28,418 nt of DNA from Terriglobia bacterium (GTDB lineage: Bacteria; Acidobacteriota; Terriglobia; Acidiferrales; UBA7541), in contig JBGQJJ010000001.1 of assembly GCA_041498955.1 (NCBI GenBank), positions 1 to 28,418 on the forward strand, read 5' to 3'. The position numbers and the translations under genes were made by a program. The notes under the pieces are model-generated. The model had not been told where the DNA came from. It saw only the letters and a program-made list of their open reading frames with translations, and searched no databases. Shown here in pieces: positions 6,027-12,017 of the stretch; position 1 is the first letter of the stretch, and every line of letters begins with the position of its first letter.

Positions 6027-6467
6027 TCAATCTTCCGCTGAGACCGAGGGCGATTCCGCTTTTTCAAAATCGAAATAGCGGCGATACTTTTCCGGCAACG
6101 GCTTGGGGCGGCCGTTGCTGTCGCAGACGACGTGGATCGATTCGCCGGTGGCCAGCAACTCTTCAGTTTCATTGTGGCGAATCTCGTAGCCGAAGGTAAT
6201 CGTGCGGCGCCTGGCCGAGGTCACGCGCGTGCGAATGCGCAGCGGATCGTCGTAGCGGGCGGGGCGGCGGTAGCGGCATTTGGCTTCGGCGACGACGGTG
6301 AAACTGTCATCGTCGAGTTCCATGCGCCGGTAATCGAGTCCGCGCTGGCGCAGATATTCGACGCGCCCAATCTCAAAATAAATGAAGTAGTTTGCGTAAT
6401 AGACGATGCCCATCTTGTCCGTCTCGGCGTAGCGGACGCGCACCACGGTGTCGATGAATTCGCTCAT
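6027..6467 (-). CDS. Acyl-CoA thioesterase, 4HBT/YbgC hotdog family
   Basis: RVRYAETDKMGIVYYANYFIYFEIGR signature; ATG at 6467 (ORF track over-extends upstream). Confidence 0.9.
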   Translation of the reverse strand: MSEFIDTVVRVRYAETDKMGIVYYANYFIYFEIGRVEYLRQRGLDYRRMELDDDSFTVVAEAKCRYRRPARYDDPLRIRTRVTSARRRTITFGYEIRHNETEELLATGESIHVVCDSNGRPKPLPEKYRRYFDFEKAESPSVSAED

Positions 6468-6522
6468 CGGGAGGGAAATTGTAGCAGAAGGGAAGCGCGG
6501 CGCGCTCGGGCGCGGAAACCAT

Positions 6523-7305
6523 TCATTTGCCGCTCCAGCGAGGCGCGCGCTTTTCGAGGAAAGAGGCGAGGCCCTCGTGAAAATCCTGCGTGGTCCGGAT
6601 ATGCGCGCTCTCCGATTTGGCCAATTCGAGTTCGCGATCGATTTCCGGCTTGGCAAAATCGCAAAGCAGCTTCTTGGTCATGTGCAGGCTGACGGGGCTG
6701 CACTGGAGCAAACTTGCCGCCAGGATTTGCGCCGCAATCATCAATTCCTTCGCAGGCACGATTTGCGTAACGAGCCCCAGGCGATGCGCTTCGGCTGCGT
6801 CGATGGTCCTGCCCGTGAGGAGCAGTTCCCGCGCGCGCTTTTCACCGATTTGGCGTACGAGAAAAATCGATACCACGGCCGGCAGAAAACCGATGCGAAC
6901 CTCCGGGTATCCAAATATTGCCTCGGGCACGGACACCGTGAAGTCGCACAGCGTGGCGATGCCGCACCCGCCGGCAATGGCGTGCCCATTTACGGCGGCG
7001 ATGGTCGGCTTCGGGAAACTCCAGATGCGCAGGAAAAGACGGGCCAGGCGGTCCGCGTCTTCGCGTTGTTCGGCGAGGGATTGCGTGGCGAGCGCCTTCA
7101 AGGCTTCCAGATCCATGCCGGAGCAGAATGCTTTGCCTGCACCGGTCAGGAGCAAGACGCGCGCGGGGCTCGCTTCGACCTCCCCAAGAGCGGAGAGAAT
7201 TTCCTCGATCATTTCCGGGGAAATGGCGTTGCGTTTCTCCGGGCGGCTGAGCGTAATCATGGCGATTTCGCCGGTGAGTTCGAGATGGAGCGTGCGGTAT
7301 GTCAT
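6523..7305 (-). CDS. Enoyl-CoA hydratase/isomerase, probable methylglutaconyl-CoA hydratase (LiuC-like)
   Basis: ITLSRPEKRNA, FCSGMDL, AAVNGHAIAGGCG, YPEVRIG; Gly at the first catalytic-Glu position; directly downstream of HMG-CoA lyase. Confidence 0.85.
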   Translation of the reverse strand: MTYRTLHLELTGEIAMITLSRPEKRNAISPEMIEEILSALGEVEASPARVLLLTGAGKAFCSGMDLEALKALATQSLAEQREDADRLARLFLRIWSFPKPTIAAVNGHAIAGGCGIATLCDFTVSVPEAIFGYPEVRIGFLPAVVSIFLVRQIGEKRARELLLTGRTIDAAEAHRLGLVTQIVPAKELMIAAQILAASLLQCSPVSLHMTKKLLCDFAKPEIDRELELAKSESAHIRTTQDFHEGLASFLEKRAPRWSGK

Positions 7306-7400: not shown

Positions 7401-8297
7401 TCACTGCGCTTGCGCCGCGTGCGAATATTTGGCGCGAATTTCCTCGGTCATCGCGAGGACTGGTCCCAGCGCTTCGGGGGAAACTCCCGCGTCCGCGCCG
7501 CGTGAGGCGAGCGCCTGGAGAATCGTTTCCGTGGCGATGTTGCCTACCAACTCGTCGCCCGCGAAGGGACAACCGCCGAGTCCTGTGAGCGCTCCATCGA
7601 ATCGACGGCAACCGGCATCGTAGGCGGCGAGAACTTTTTCCGCCGCGCCCTCGGCCCGGCTGTGCAGATGAACGCCCAACTCGAGGCCCGCTACGCAATT
7701 TTTAACGGTGTTATACAGCGCGCCCACGTATTCGGGAGGAGTGGTTCCGACCGTATCGGCGAGCGATACAATTCGCACTCCAATGTCCTTGAGCCAGACC
7801 AGCGCGTCTTCGACAATTTCGGCGCCCCAGGGTTCCTCGTACGGATTGCCGAACGCCATCGAAATGTAGACTACCAACCCGTGTCCGGATGCTTTCGTGG
7901 CCTTTCGCAATTTCTCCACGAGGGCGCGCGACTCTCCCCGGCTCATATTCGCATTCGCCCGGCGAAAATAGGCGGATATGGAATAGGGATATCCAATCGC
8001 CGTAACGCCAGGAGTGGCAAGCGCGCGTTCCATGCCTCTTTCATTCACGACGATTCCGATGATTTCGGGCTGCGTCACCCCTGCGGGAAGGCCAGCAAGA
8101 AATCCTTTCATCACGTCTTCACTGTCGGACATTTGCTTTACATGTTGAGGCGAAACGAAGCTGACGGCGTCAATATGTCTGAAGCCCGCGGCAACCAATT
8201 TCAACAGGTAATCAATTTTCACATGCGCGGGAATAATTTCCGGCAATCCCTGCCAGGCATCCCTCGGGCATTCGACAATCTTTACGGTTTCAATCAA
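7401..8297 (-). CDS. hmgL: Hydroxymethylglutaryl-CoA lyase
   Basis: ECPRDAWQG, SLADTVG, metal-binding HLH, catalytic-Cys motif GLGGCPFA. TTG at 8297 with AGGA 6 nt upstream preferred; the GTG at 8324 lies inside a repeat arm. Confidence 0.88.
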   Translation of the reverse strand: MIETVKIVECPRDAWQGLPEIIPAHVKIDYLLKLVAAGFRHIDAVSFVSPQHVKQMSDSEDVMKGFLAGLPAGVTQPEIIGIVVNERGMERALATPGVTAIGYPYSISAYFRRANANMSRGESRALVEKLRKATKASGHGLVVYISMAFGNPYEEPWGAEIVEDALVWLKDIGVRIVSLADTVGTTPPEYVGALYNTVKNCVAGLELGVHLHSRAEGAAEKVLAAYDAGCRRFDGALTGLGGCPFAGDELVGNIATETILQALASRGADAGVSPEALGPVLAMTEEIRAKYSHAAQAQ

Positions 8298-8310
8298 CGG
8301 AGGTCCTATA

Positions 8311-8345
8311 AGTTGAAAGTCCACAGTTTAGAGTTGAGAGTTAAG
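8311..8345. repeat. Left arm: five AGTNNNN heptamers
   Basis: AGTTGAA AGTCCAC AGTTTAG AGTTGAG AGTTAAG. Confidence 0.85.
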
Positions 8346-8384
8346 AACAAAATATCCTTCGCCATGCAATAGTTGACGATTTCC

Positions 8385-8744
8385 TCACTGAGCTTTACTG
8401 ACTTTGGCCCGCAGGGCATGGAGCATCTTTGCTATTTCATCAGCCTCGGTGAGTAAAGGCTTCGTAATAGTCGCCGGCAAGTATCCCAAATCCCGGCTTA
8501 CCATGAGTAAATATTCAGTTTCCGCCAGAGAGCCCTCGGCAATATTCAGAAAACGAGCGTACTCCGCGTTGGTCAGCCGTTTTGAACCCTCCGCAATATT
8601 CGTTGGCACCGACAACGTGGACCGCCGAATCTGTGATGTGAGCCCGTATCGCTCTTCTGGCGGGAATGTCTTCGTCAGCCGATACACTTGCAGCACGAGC
8701 GCATGACCCCTTTGCCAAACCTTCAACTCCGTGAACCTTTGCAC
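8385..8744 (-). CDS. Four-helix-bundle protein (23S rRNA IVS protein / bAvd-like family)
   Basis: FTELKVWQ...FPPEERYGLTSQIRRS..SVPTNIAEG...FLNIAEGSLAETEYLL...DLGY family pattern; GTG start with GAGGT RBS. Confidence 0.93.
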   Translation of the reverse strand: MQRFTELKVWQRGHALVLQVYRLTKTFPPEERYGLTSQIRRSTLSVPTNIAEGSKRLTNAEYARFLNIAEGSLAETEYLLMVSRDLGYLPATITKPLLTEADEIAKMLHALRAKVSKAQ

Positions 8745-8779
8745 AGCTACCTCAGTGGCCCGGCGGCTCGGAGTTTCTG

Positions 8780-8821
8780 ACTTTTGACTCTCAACTCTAA
8801 ACTGTCGACTCTCAACTCGAA
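8780..8821. repeat. Right arm: six ACTNNNN heptamers (inverted relative to the left arm)
   Basis: ACTTTTG ACTCTCA ACTCTAA ACTGTCG ACTCTCA ACTCGAA. Confidence 0.85.
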
Positions 8822-8822
8822 C

Positions 8823-10499
8823 CTAGGTTTGTAAAACGCCGGTCTTGAATTCTTTCACATCGGGATTTAATGCTGCCGCCTCTAACGCCCAAATCAAAGC
8901 CTCGCGTGTTTGCGCCGGATCCAGGATGGCATCGACCCACAGGCGCGCCGCGGCGTAGCGCGGATCGGTCTGATGTTCGTACGTGGCGAGGATGGACTCT
9001 TTTAATTCCTTCTTGTCCGCCTCGGAGAGCTTTTTTCCTTGGCGTTCGAGCTGTTTAATTTTGATCTCGACAAGAGTGGACGCAGCGGAATCGCCGCTCA
9101 TTACGGCGTAGCGCGCCGTGGGCCAGGCGAAAATGAATCGCGGGTCGTAGGCTTTGCCGCACATGGCGTAGTGGCCCGCGCCGAAACTTCCGCCGCAGAT
9201 CACCGTGATTTTCGGCACGACGCTATTCGAGACGGCGTTCACCATTTTTGCGCCCGCGCGGATGATTCCGCTCCACTCGGCTTCCTTGCCGACCATGAAT
9301 CCGTTGACGTCGTGCAGGAAAATCAGCGGCACGAGATTCTGGTTGCAGTCCATGATGAAACGCGCGGCCTTTTCCGCCGATTCGGTATAGATGACTCCGC
9401 CAAATTCGATGCGGCGCTCTCCCGTCGCGGCGTCGATCGTGGGGACATGCTTCTTGTTGTTGGCGACGATGCCAACGGCCCAGCCGCCGATTCGCGCGTA
9501 GCCGCAAAGCACGGTCTTGCCGTATTCCGCGCGGTACTCCTCGAATTTGCTGCCATCGACGATGCGCGCGATCACTTCGTGCATGTCGTATTGGCGCGCC
9601 GGGTCGGAAGAAAAAATGCCGTAGATTTCCTCGGGCGGGAACGACGGATTCTCGGATTCCTTGTAATCAAACCGCGCGGCTAGTGGATGCCCCATCTTGT
9701 CCACAAGAGCGCGGATGCGCGCGAGGCAAGACTCGTCGTCCGGCTCGCGAAAATCGACCGTGCCGCTGATTTCCGCGTGCATTTTCGCGCCGCCCAGCTC
9801 TTCGGCGGAAACTTTCTGCCCGATGGCCGCCTGCACGAGCGCCGGCCCCGCAAGGAAAAGTCCCGAACCTTCCGTCATCAGGATGTGATCGCACATCACA
9901 GGCAGATACGCTCCGCCCGCGACGCACATCCCCATGATGGCCGTGATTTGGGGAATGTGCATGGCGCTCATGACGGCGTTGTTGCGAAAGACGCGGCCGA
10001 AATCGTCGGTGTCGGGGAACACATCTTCTTGCAGCGGCAGAAAAACGCCTGCGGAATCGACCAGGTAAATCGTGGGAATGTGATTGTCAATGGAAATATT
10101 TTGCGCGCGAATCACTTTTTTCGCGGTGAGAGGGAAGAAAGCCCCGGCTTTCACTGTCGCGTCGTTGGCAATGATCATCACGAGACGCCCGCAGATTCGC
10201 GCGAGGCCCGTGATCGCTCCCGCGGCCGGCGCGCCGCCCCACTCTTCGTACATTTCGTGCGCGGCGTAAATTCCCAGCTCGAAAAACGAAGTGTGCGGAT
10301 CGATCAGCTTGGCGATGCGCTCGCGAGCGGTCAGGCGGCTCTTCTTGTGCTGCGCTTCGATGGCTTTCGCGCCGCCGCCCTGCTGGATCACGGTTTCCTG
10401 GTTCTTGATTTCGGTGAGGAGATCCACCATGCGGCGGGTATTCTTCTCGAAGTCGGGCGAGTTTCGGTTGACCTTGGTTTCAACGGCGGAACTCGTCAA
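8823..10499 (-). CDS. Acyl-CoA carboxylase carboxyltransferase subunit, probable 3-methylcrotonyl-CoA carboxylase beta (LiuB/MccB-like)
   Basis: LTARERIAKLIDP, ANDATVKAG, VDSAGVFLP, QIT..MGMCVAGGAY, GGSFGAGHYAMCG, ARLWVDAILDP; TTG start with GGAGGAG RBS; context with hmgL and the hydratase. Confidence 0.88.
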   Translation of the reverse strand: MTSSAVETKVNRNSPDFEKNTRRMVDLLTEIKNQETVIQQGGGAKAIEAQHKKSRLTARERIAKLIDPHTSFFELGIYAAHEMYEEWGGAPAAGAITGLARICGRLVMIIANDATVKAGAFFPLTAKKVIRAQNISIDNHIPTIYLVDSAGVFLPLQEDVFPDTDDFGRVFRNNAVMSAMHIPQITAIMGMCVAGGAYLPVMCDHILMTEGSGLFLAGPALVQAAIGQKVSAEELGGAKMHAEISGTVDFREPDDESCLARIRALVDKMGHPLAARFDYKESENPSFPPEEIYGIFSSDPARQYDMHEVIARIVDGSKFEEYRAEYGKTVLCGYARIGGWAVGIVANNKKHVPTIDAATGERRIEFGGVIYTESAEKAARFIMDCNQNLVPLIFLHDVNGFMVGKEAEWSGIIRAGAKMVNAVSNSVVPKITVICGGSFGAGHYAMCGKAYDPRFIFAWPTARYAVMSGDSAASTLVEIKIKQLERQGKKLSEADKKELKESILATYEHQTDPRYAAARLWVDAILDPAQTREALIWALEAAALNPDVKEFKTGVLQT

Positions 10500-10695: not shown

Positions 10696-11835
10696 TTAGA
10701 TTTTCAGAATTTTCGCCGCTGTTCCACCCAAGATCATCTTGCGCTGCTCTGAATTCAGGCGGAGTTCTTCGACGACTTCCACCGGGCGATCGTAGCCCAC
10801 GGGAAAGCAATAGTCGCTGCCCATCATGATTCGCTCGACGCCTACCTGCGAGATGATGTACTCCATCAGCGGCTTGGAATGCGCGATGGTGTCGTACATG
10901 AAGCGGTGCAGATACGCGCTGGGCGGTTGCGCGGAATGCTTGGCCGCGGGGATCGCGTTCCAGCCGTGGTCGAGCCGGCCAACGATATTTAGCAGCGCGC
11001 CGCCGGCGTGCGGCAGGACGATCAGGAGATTGGGATGGCGGTCGAGCACGCCGCCAAAGATGAGATGAGAGGCGGCGACCGTGGTGTCCAGCGGATAAGC
11101 AAGCAGGTTGGTAAGGGAAAGGGGCTGGAGCCGCTTGCCGCCGAGGATGGGCGGCAAAGGATGCAGAAAGACCGGGAGGCCGAGCGCCTCGATTCGTGTG
11201 AATATCGGCTCGAACAGCGGATCGTCGAGGTCGCGCCCTTCGATATTCGTGCCCATGTAAACGCCGCGCACTCCTGGGAGCTTGCTCACGCGGTTGAGTT
11301 CGTCAAGGGCGCGGTCGGGATCGAGCATGGGCAGAGTCGCGAGGACCACGAACCTGTCGGGATTGGCCTGGTGCGCCGCGACCGCGGCGTCGTTCCAGGT
11401 GCTGGCGAGCTTGTGCGAGAATTCGCCCTCCGCCCAATAAACCATCGGGCCGGTGAGCGACAGGGCTTGGACGGCCACGCCTTGTGCGTGCATGTCGGCC
11501 AGGCGCTGCTTCAGGTCGATGAATTTCGCTGGCAACGGGCCGTTCGATTCCGCGGGAGTTTTGAAGAAGAAGCCTTGCTCGGTCATGCGAAACTCGGCGT
11601 TGTAACGCTGGCCTTCGGAATTGAATAGATCGAGGTAGGTCTGGGGAAAATAATGGGCGTGAATGTCGATCGGGCGCGCTCCGGTCGTTTTGAGCGCGGA
11701 GGGTACGGCAGGTTCAGCGAGCAGCGTATCGCTCACGCCGCTCATCGAGCTTACTGCTGCCGCGGCAAGCCCTCCTTGCAGAACTCTTCGGCGCGATACT
11801 CCATGATTGCAACCGCACACTGCGTCTTTCTTCAT
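10696..11835 (-). CDS. Amidohydrolase_2 family protein (ACMSD/LigW-like metal-dependent decarboxylase/hydrolase) with Tat signal
   Basis: SRRRVLQGG twin-arginine motif plus hydrophobic stretch; DIHAH, FLHP, PHAGG, MGSDY metal-site motifs. Confidence 0.85.
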   Translation of the reverse strand: MKKDAVCGCNHGVSRRRVLQGGLAAAAVSSMSGVSDTLLAEPAVPSALKTTGARPIDIHAHYFPQTYLDLFNSEGQRYNAEFRMTEQGFFFKTPAESNGPLPAKFIDLKQRLADMHAQGVAVQALSLTGPMVYWAEGEFSHKLASTWNDAAVAAHQANPDRFVVLATLPMLDPDRALDELNRVSKLPGVRGVYMGTNIEGRDLDDPLFEPIFTRIEALGLPVFLHPLPPILGGKRLQPLSLTNLLAYPLDTTVAASHLIFGGVLDRHPNLLIVLPHAGGALLNIVGRLDHGWNAIPAAKHSAQPPSAYLHRFMYDTIAHSKPLMEYIISQVGVERIMMGSDYCFPVGYDRPVEVVEELRLNSEQRKMILGGTAAKILKI

Positions 11836-11951
11836 GGCATAGTCCTTTTAGGAACAGGAATCTCCGATTTGGATGGGTCTCGCGAATCGTACGCTTTTCC
11901 TGCGCTGGGCACAACGAACATGCCTTCAAAGGCCTCAGGCACAGCAGGTTT

Positions 11952-12017
11952 CCTGGGAACGCCAATCTCCCGATTGGCGTTGCGCAAACCGCCAATCGGG
12001 AGATTGGCGTTCCCGGG
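11952..12017. repeat. REP doublet, CC(C/T)GGGAA class
   Basis: Arms 11952-11979 and 11990-12017, near-identical to those at 5918-5985; spacer TTGCGCAAAC. Confidence 0.9.

Follow-up and report, generated by a model that had tools for sequence, protein, structure and literature searches.

The 28,418-nucleotide stretch of DNA analysed here, referred to as the window, comes from a metagenome-assembled genome (MAG) of a Terriglobia bacterium (phylum Acidobacteriota; 2.04 Mb in 258 contigs, about 70% complete; G000 in our genus set). On its minus strand, a 521-bp segment carrying a 119-residue four-helix-bundle gene of the PF05635 family stands between a carboxyltransferase gene and an HMG-CoA-lyase-like gene. 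Based on the comparative evidence presented here, this segment is probably a cassette of the intervening sequence (IVS) type that resides in an mRNA operon, its PF05635 gene having its own ribosome-binding site (RBS) and lying between two inverted arrays of about five 7-nt units. In the direction of transcription, the locus comprises:

8823-10499, minus strand: carboxyltransferase subunit of acyl-CoA carboxylase, the upstream operon gene (PF01039 Carboxyl_trans, E 4e-138), with the stop TAG at 8823-8825
8776-8822, minus strand: sense-strand 5' arm, GTTCG followed by AGTTGAG, AGTCGAC, AGTTTAG, AGTTGAG, AGTCAAA and AGTCAGA (six AGTNNNN units)
8745-8775, minus strand: cassette leader within the loop, with a GAGG Shine-Dalgarno-like motif a few bases 5' of the GTG start
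8385-8744, minus strand: four-helix-bundle protein gene, 119 aa, GTG start, PF05635 / TIGR02436 type
8345-8384, minus strand: 3' untranslated stretch within the loop, read from the sequence
8311-8344, minus strand: sense-strand 3' arm, TTA followed by ACTCTCA, ACTCTAA, ACTGTGG, ACTTTCA and ACT
7401-8310 (CDS 7401-8297), minus strand: downstream HMG-CoA-lyase-like gene with its leader (PF00682, E 2e-22), AGGA RBS at 8304-8307 and TTG start at 8295-8297
6523-7305, minus strand: enoyl-CoA hydratase gene of the operon
6027-6656, minus strand: 4HBT thioesterase gene of the operon

The open reading frame (ORF) at 8385-8744(-) matches the PF05635 profile (23S_rRNA_IVP) with an E-value of 2e-39 over profile positions 2-105 of 106, and its 134.5 bits lie above the family cut-off of 33.8. 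The match to the bAvd profile is weak (24.4 bits, under the cut-off of 40). An earlier note on this DNA, written from the sequence alone, had described the gene as of the IVS/bAvd family. The nearest solved homologue is PDB 2GSC (Xanthomonas XCC0516; E 2.5e-23), a further one being 2RLD (E 2e-4), and the RxxxSxxxNxxE motif described for PF05635 proteins (PMC3936711) is present in the translation as RSTLSVPTNIAE. Altogether 3882 homologues of the protein were found, the named relatives belonging mostly to the Terriglobia (Acidobacteriota). The profile matches of the gene and of its neighbours bear out the earlier description of a PF05635-type gene lodged between two conserved-pathway genes. The adjacency of carboxyltransferase and lyase is kept in 41 congeners, and the operon gene order is also found in two metagenome loci (L141 and L142). 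The lyase starts at the TTG at 8297, which is conserved in 37 relatives, and its RBS is conserved in relatives too; mechanical ORF calling stretches this gene to a GTG at 8324, within the cassette arm (8298-8324).

The 5' arm begins directly after the carboxyltransferase stop, and its pairing core (8784-8817) forms with 8311-8344 an inverted repeat of 34 nt that is 91% complementary, with an ungapped inverted-arm score of 26.5 against a maximum of 12.5 among 20 shuffles. The 7-nt periodicity is marked (identity of 0.70 at lag 7 versus 0.19 at other lags), with five AGTNNNN units on the left and six on the right, the latter read as the reverse complement. The inverted heptamer arms described in the earlier note are thus real, and several other features that it reported were also recovered: the letters CCTA just outside both arms (8305-8308 and 8822-8825), the lack of any transposase gene inside the cassette, and a G+C content of 50.3% for the cassette and 52.8% for the gene versus 58.6% for the window and 59.6% for the genome. 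The sense RNA of the cassette has a predicted minimum free energy of -200.3 kcal/mol (z -4.65), in a fold closed by the arm stem, and none of 100 shuffles was as stable. No sigma-70-like promoter was found between 7300 and 10700 and no terminator-like site within the cassette; with neither of its own, the cassette would be expected to be co-transcribed with the operon.

Armed PF05635 genes are widespread in the genus. The family is present in 35 of 45 genomes, and the periodic inverted arms that were looked for beside other family members adjoin the ORF in about 46 of the 60 genes examined (score of at least 14, the shuffle maximum being about 12). Most of these armed loci are 7-periodic, with a few 8-periodic ones. 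Protein clade and repeat unit are specific to the junction, with one copy of each type per genome: AGTTGAG at carboxyltransferase|lyase, CCCGTGA at atpD|atpC, CGTGATT or GTGACTG at atpG|atpD, and the 8-periodic units GGAAGCAA at sucC|sucD and GGCAAGGA at sucD|ndk. The number of units per arm ranges from 3 to 19, with a median of 4.7 in the 5' arm and of 5.0 in the 3' arm, where the mode is 5. At two loci the 5' arm has grown to 19 (L078, atpG|atpD of G022) and to 8 (L032, G015) perfect GTGACTG units, the 3' arm keeping about five; in this, the arrays resemble simple repeats prone to slippage. The atpD|atpC cassettes and one type of atpG|atpD cassette (L018-L022, L027, L032, L035 and others) have their 3' arm within the ORF (21-45 nt ahead of the stop), so that heptamer repeats encode the C-terminal tail of the protein.

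The distribution of the closest relatives is evidence that gene and arms form one module. The 84 closest relatives of the protein are 58-85% identical to it, and 80 of them come from named MAGs, mostly of Acidobacteriota; those with 66-74% identity include records labelled Myxococcota, Chloroflexota, Gemmatimonadota and Binatia, although such MAG labels may be wrong. Arms are present at 70 of the 84 loci, 57 of which are 7-periodic, and the unit is AGTYGAR-like almost throughout. These loci fall into about 39 neighbour classes, including M20 peptidase|OPT transporter (12 loci), atpF|atpH (5 loci), atpH|atpA (3 loci), E1beta|E2 (3 loci), imuB|dnaE2 (2 loci) and sites with aroB flanking upstream (2 loci). 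A close homologue with AGTYGAR arms also lies directly downstream of fabH, at a junction of fabH with a short open frame, and another lies directly upstream of dnaE, a junction that the wider set identifies as imuB|dnaE2. The finding, in soil bacteria, of one protein clade with one repeat unit at some 39 junction classes argues that the arms and the gene travel together over evolutionary time, and the earlier proposal of a self-contained cassette is supported, the module being found at many intercistronic junctions. The same proposal had described a mobile element: long-term movement as a unit agrees with this description, but neither a target duplication nor a recent insertion is supported, as detailed below.

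The spacers of the ATP synthase operon display this turnover among close relatives. Across 30 species, what occupies atpG|atpD and atpD|atpC varies in a mosaic at odds with the atpD tree: a spacer may hold a cassette (of one of three arm types), a heptamer hairpin of 100-115 nt with no gene, a 98-nt palindrome that is unrelated, or a short remnant. The mosaic persists within a clade of five species whose atpD terminal branches measure only about 0.025-0.03 substitutions per site. The gene-less hairpins of 100-115 nt are found at atpD|atpC, and G018 retains both arms and the last 70 nt or so of the gene, about 330 nt having been deleted; we read this allele as a direct intermediate between the cassette and the gene-less hairpin. 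Going by the sequences, cassettes decay to gene-less hairpins and then to solo arms. Hairpins are intact in four genomes in which no PF05635 gene is detectable (G041, 97% complete; G024, 94%; G047, 91%; G042, 87%), and this persistence argues that they do not depend on the gene. By eye, the arm type of the atpG|atpD cassette agrees with that of the atpD|atpC hairpin in 11 of 14 genomes, a count that is confounded by phylogeny and was not used as evidence.

Several other alleles illustrate the variety of these sites. In G045 (L092), the cassette is a chimera with a 5' arm and N-terminus of the CGTGATT type, the remainder and the 3' arm being of the GTGACTG type, and in G001 (L103) the gene is shortened to 81 aa between intact arms. 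A conserved palindrome of 87-103 nt (GTAGGACAGGCTTCAGCCTGTCGG ... CGACAGGCTGAAGCCTGTCCTAC) is an alternative occupant of atpG|atpD in 10 of the 30 species (for instance at L116, L117, L123, L126, L129-L132 and L138) and alternates with the cassette among close relatives. G000 itself has about seven other loci with gene-less AGTTGAG-type arms, which form short-loop hairpins, are diverged and lie amid other heptamer families. One of them (C36:11880-11980) separates the E1beta gene of a 2-oxoacid dehydrogenase from the E2 gene, a junction that elsewhere holds a cassette of the AGTYGAR type. On the same contig (C36:10100-10400 and 11800-12000; L237), downstream of E2 and at E1beta|E2, AGTTGAG hairpins are nested in outer inverted arrays of CCCGTGR and GTGATTC.

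The carboxyltransferase|lyase junction was recovered in 42 species of the genus, and the cassette is present in five of them (G000, G022, G023, G052 and G055). The 37 empty alleles consist of 29 short spacers of 23-50 nt and 8 spacers of 126-236 nt, most of the latter holding another palindromic element or its remnants; the 236-nt spacer of G041, considered as a possible degraded cassette, has no arms visible by inspection, no alignment to a cassette having been made. The earlier note had reconstructed an empty site in which the carboxyltransferase stop overlaps the RBS of the lyase gene, an arrangement seen in none of the 37 empty alleles. At least two in-phase (A/G)CTNNNN units stand just 5' of the RBS in 15 of the 29 short spacers, where 0.8 would be expected from shuffles, and no AGT arrays were found in these 29 spacers; the short empty spacers look like solo 3' arms of varying length.

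On the tree of the flanking genes, the filled species are scattered and well-supported branches force five changes; placing them in a single clade costs 658 log-likelihood units (p-AU 2.9e-5), and their monophyly is rejected. G000 groups with empty-site species, whose homologous 37-nt spacer is also found in distant clades, and vertical descent alone would thus need lineage sorting or allele exchange to account for its cassette. Presence and absence at orthologous sites (5 of 42 filled) do not follow the phylogeny, and the distribution at this junction needs either repeated loss with allele exchange, or re-insertion. In a search for a recombination tract around the cassette, G000 proved less similar to its near relatives within about 300 nt to either side, but there these relatives are also less similar to each other, and the junction-proximal flanks of G000 are no closer to the other filled lineages.

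The two copies of CCTA, which had been taken for a target duplication, have separate explanations: one is a TAG stop plus a G, and the other is the AGGA RBS. CCTA is not repeated in the remaining four filled alleles, whose ends are TAGG...AAGG or TAAA...GAAGG, and the flanks of 70 armed loci share 3.20 letters compared with 3.15 in permuted pairs, so that no target duplication is seen across these loci. A 4-nt direct repeat, GTTC, at the inner deletion boundary in G000 is missing from the other filled alleles and was dismissed as chance. In G057, G058, G049 and G021 (L047, L048, L052 and L069), the carboxyltransferase|lyase junction holds a palindromic insert of another kind, about 190-220 nt long (TTTTGTCATTCCGAGCGAAGCGAGGAATCTCTCC ... 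mirror), with remnants in L055 and L058. This spacer is thus a hotspot for more than one hairpin element.

The age of the G000 copy speaks against the recent or active element that the earlier note had envisaged. It is the only PF05635 gene in the genome, and its comparison with the four sister copies gives nonsynonymous divergence (dN) of 0.07-0.18 and saturated synonymous divergence (dS), with dN/dS of at most 0.08. Third-position identity among the five copies is 0.32-0.57, and the dS of the flanking genes is 0.7-1.7. Saturated dS and low dN/dS identify the G000 copy as an old, selected resident and not a recent insertion. All 60 PF05635 genes examined in the genus have a G+C content below that of their flanks (52.0% versus 59.4%), and the low G+C is thus a family trait and no sign of recent arrival.

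From these observations we propose the following scheme. The cassette would be transcribed together with the carboxyltransferase-lyase operon, and the arms are predicted to pair in the transcript as a 34-bp stem around a 440-nt loop that contains the gene. RNase III may cut this stem, by analogy with the rRNA IVS of the same gene family, and such cleavage would let the essential cistrons tolerate the insert and would free a small mRNA. Over evolutionary time the module moves as a unit, and it is easily lost, internal deletion converting it into a gene-less hairpin and further deletion into a solo arm. New sites could be reached by recombination between the arm arrays and other members of their repeat family, either resident arrays or hairpins without a gene, together with allelic exchange through the flanking genes and with no dedicated transposase. 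This last step is tentative and we hold it as a doubtful possibility; same-unit solo arms at empty sites, same-unit gene-less hairpins at junctions that elsewhere carry the cassette, the chimeric cassette, and the lack of both a duplication and an enzyme make arm recombination the most economical route.

Several points weigh against this scheme. Co-transcription, stem formation and RNase III cleavage are steps that we infer. Arm mismatches on the sense strand show no excess of G.U over A.C (55 versus 42 in the genus, 66 versus 68 at 70 wider loci), and there is thus no sign of selection on pairing of the sense RNA, which stays a prediction; this is a weak test, most mismatches being out-of-order repeat units. 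No insertion event was seen directly, no target duplication emerged from the 70 loci, and no enzyme is linked to the arms. The site-specific clades and the single copy per genome within the genus also fit a long vertical residence. Finally, the arms measure about 35 bp, close to the minimum length for recombination of the RecA type.

Two enzymes were considered as partners and set aside. The transposases of repetitive extragenic palindromic (REP) sequences, known as RAYT or Y1 transposases, are present in 42 of 45 genomes, but at the 12 Y1_Tnp loci inspected (L225-L236) they are flanked by their own GTAG-type REP palindromes, with no inverted repeats of heptamer arrays. One of these loci (L234) has an unrelated array of about 40 units, (GTGTGCG)n, beside it. 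A reverse transcriptase is not a required partner: none was detected in 24 of the 45 genomes, several of which have three cassettes, and no RVT_1 match was found in G000 (70% complete) or adjoining the cassette gene.

The alternative that survives best, although we consider it unlikely, concerns the function of the arms. They may be binding arrays for a pentameric ring formed by the encoded protein, about five heptamers of single-stranded RNA or DNA being bound, one per subunit as in TRAP; such binding would compete with the hairpin and control either the expression of the gene itself or the processing of the operon. This would account for each protein clade keeping its own unit, for the retention of AGTYGAR across phyla despite saturated synonymous sites, and for the figure of about five units per arm. 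It also agrees with the deposition of 2GSC with five chains, with the description of this homologue as a homopentamer (PMC4990558) and with the homology of the family to the nucleic-acid-binding protein Avd (PMC10053308) of diversity-generating retroelements (DGRs). However, conservation of the motif could come from common descent plus selection for pairing, same-unit hairpins remain intact in genomes without a family gene, and the number of units varies from 3 to 19. An extension of this idea, to which we likewise give little credence, is that PF05635 proteins bind in a sequence-specific manner to the heptamer arrays of their own cassettes, each 7-nt unit being taken by one subunit of the ring, and that gene and arms constitute a self-recognising selfish module homing, or being loaded, into arrays of the same unit. 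If this were true, the overabundance of heptamer repeats among bacterial genomes, long without an explanation, and the rRNA IVS would be two faces of one class of elements.

It is quite improbable that the gene is a non-mobile resident, inherited vertically from the ancestor of the genus and deleted many times independently, with arms that are the REP-like intercistronic hairpins of this lineage. The site-specific protein clades with one copy per type per genome, the saturated dS under strong purifying selection, the commonness of gene-less heptamer hairpins in operon spacers (even in genomes devoid of PF05635), and the variable length of the solo arms, which resemble independent deletions, would all be expected. 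Vertical inheritance is, however, hard to reconcile with a single protein clade and arm unit at about 39 junctions, with relatives of 66-74% identity in records labelled as other phyla, with the position of G000 among empty-site species that share their 37-nt spacer with distant clades, and with the atp spacer mosaic among five species separated by short atpD branches.

Least credible of all, and in our view very improbable, is the reading of an active miniature transposon that lacks a transposase, entered the stop/RBS junction recently with duplication of CCTA, and on excision would restore ...CAAACC-TAG-GACCTCCG-TTG: the inverted arms with CCTA on either side, a G+C content under that of the flanks and the absence of the insert from most congeners are as it would predict, but the expected overlap is never seen in the 29 short empty alleles, 15 of which have 3'-arm-like heptamers, CCTA is stop plus RBS and none of the four further filled alleles repeats it, shared flank words are not in excess at 70 loci, the genome has a single gene-bearing copy with dS saturated against its sisters, and low G+C is common to all 60 family genes in the genus.

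An IVS-type cassette residing in mRNA operons thus remains our preferred reading, and it offers a handle on a large protein family, first discovered within rRNA IVS, whose function has, to our knowledge, been unknown since 1993 and which we know to be discussed only for rRNA IVS, DGRs and cas loci. As a rule, a pair of heptamer arrays specific to the clade accompanies the gene as it travels, and its cassettes wedge into core operons such as those for ATP synthase, the tricarboxylic acid cycle, 2-oxoacid dehydrogenase, fatty-acid synthesis and leucine catabolism. Their decay yields the heptamer hairpins without a gene and the solo arrays that are strewn across these genomes. These findings suggest what the protein probably recognises, a possible origin of intergenic heptamer repeats and a reason for the form of the rRNA IVS. 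Annotation is affected as well: neighbouring genes are extended into the arms by ORF callers, and some C-terminal tails of the family are arm-encoded.

No paper linking inverted heptamer arrays, PF05635-family genes in operons and IVS was found in the searchable literature, but each of these has been described separately. Intergenic heptamer arrays (GGGAATC in Xanthomonas, STRR-like repeats in Nostoc, hairpins in Geobacter) typically have 4-5 units, a number that varies, and are found between co-directional ORFs, often in convergent pairs that can fold into stem-loops (PMC4692102, PMC2700814). These reports name no associated gene and read the arrays as G-quadruplex or regulator sites, whereas here the arrays bracket PF05635 genes and the unit co-varies with the protein clade. 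REP sequences, their bacterial interspersed mosaic elements with RAYT, and MITEs (miniature transposable elements with inverted repeats) resemble the cassette as short palindromic intergenic elements in many copies, with gene-less hairpins in operon spacers and no internal transposase. The RAYT genes of the genus differ in being flanked by GTAG-type palindromes instead of heptamer arrays (the 12 loci above). A MITE or DNA transposon would match the phylogeny-discordant presence, but not the lack of a target duplication and of near-identical gene-bearing copies in G000. The DGR protein Avd has a homologous four-helix-bundle fold and a pentameric assembly like that of the homologue PDB 2GSC (PMC10053308), but the cassette differs in having no reverse transcriptase detected in the genome or beside the gene, metabolic neighbours and a bAvd score below cut-off; no template/variable repeat pair was noticed, none having been searched for. 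PF05635-family genes wedged into cas operons have also been reported, with no mention of arms (PMC3936711).

The closest known kind of cassette is the ORF-bearing IVS of 23S rRNA, although we do not file the present one as an rRNA IVS because it lies between protein-coding genes and not in a helix of 23S rRNA. It is lodged in an operon spacer, with a stop codon on one side and an RBS on the other, and strong purifying selection acts on its gene, which is preceded by a good RBS; the Coxiella ORF, by contrast, is believed to go untranslated and to be decaying. For the rRNA elements, excision by RNase III is known; here we infer it by analogy. The likeness is otherwise extensive. As in Leptospira and Coxiella, a PF05635 ORF lies between terminal inverted repeats with a stem of about 28-34 bp, tandem heptamers occupy the arm region in numbers that vary between strains, and the element sits within a highly transcribed unit without a promoter of its own. 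For instance, the IVS in helix 45 of the Coxiella burnetii 23S rRNA contains an ORF of the same family (S23p), a 28-bp stem and tandem GACAGAT heptamers, and is excised by RNase III (PMC4990558). A past as a mobile element has also been suggested for the rRNA IVS (PMC4990558).

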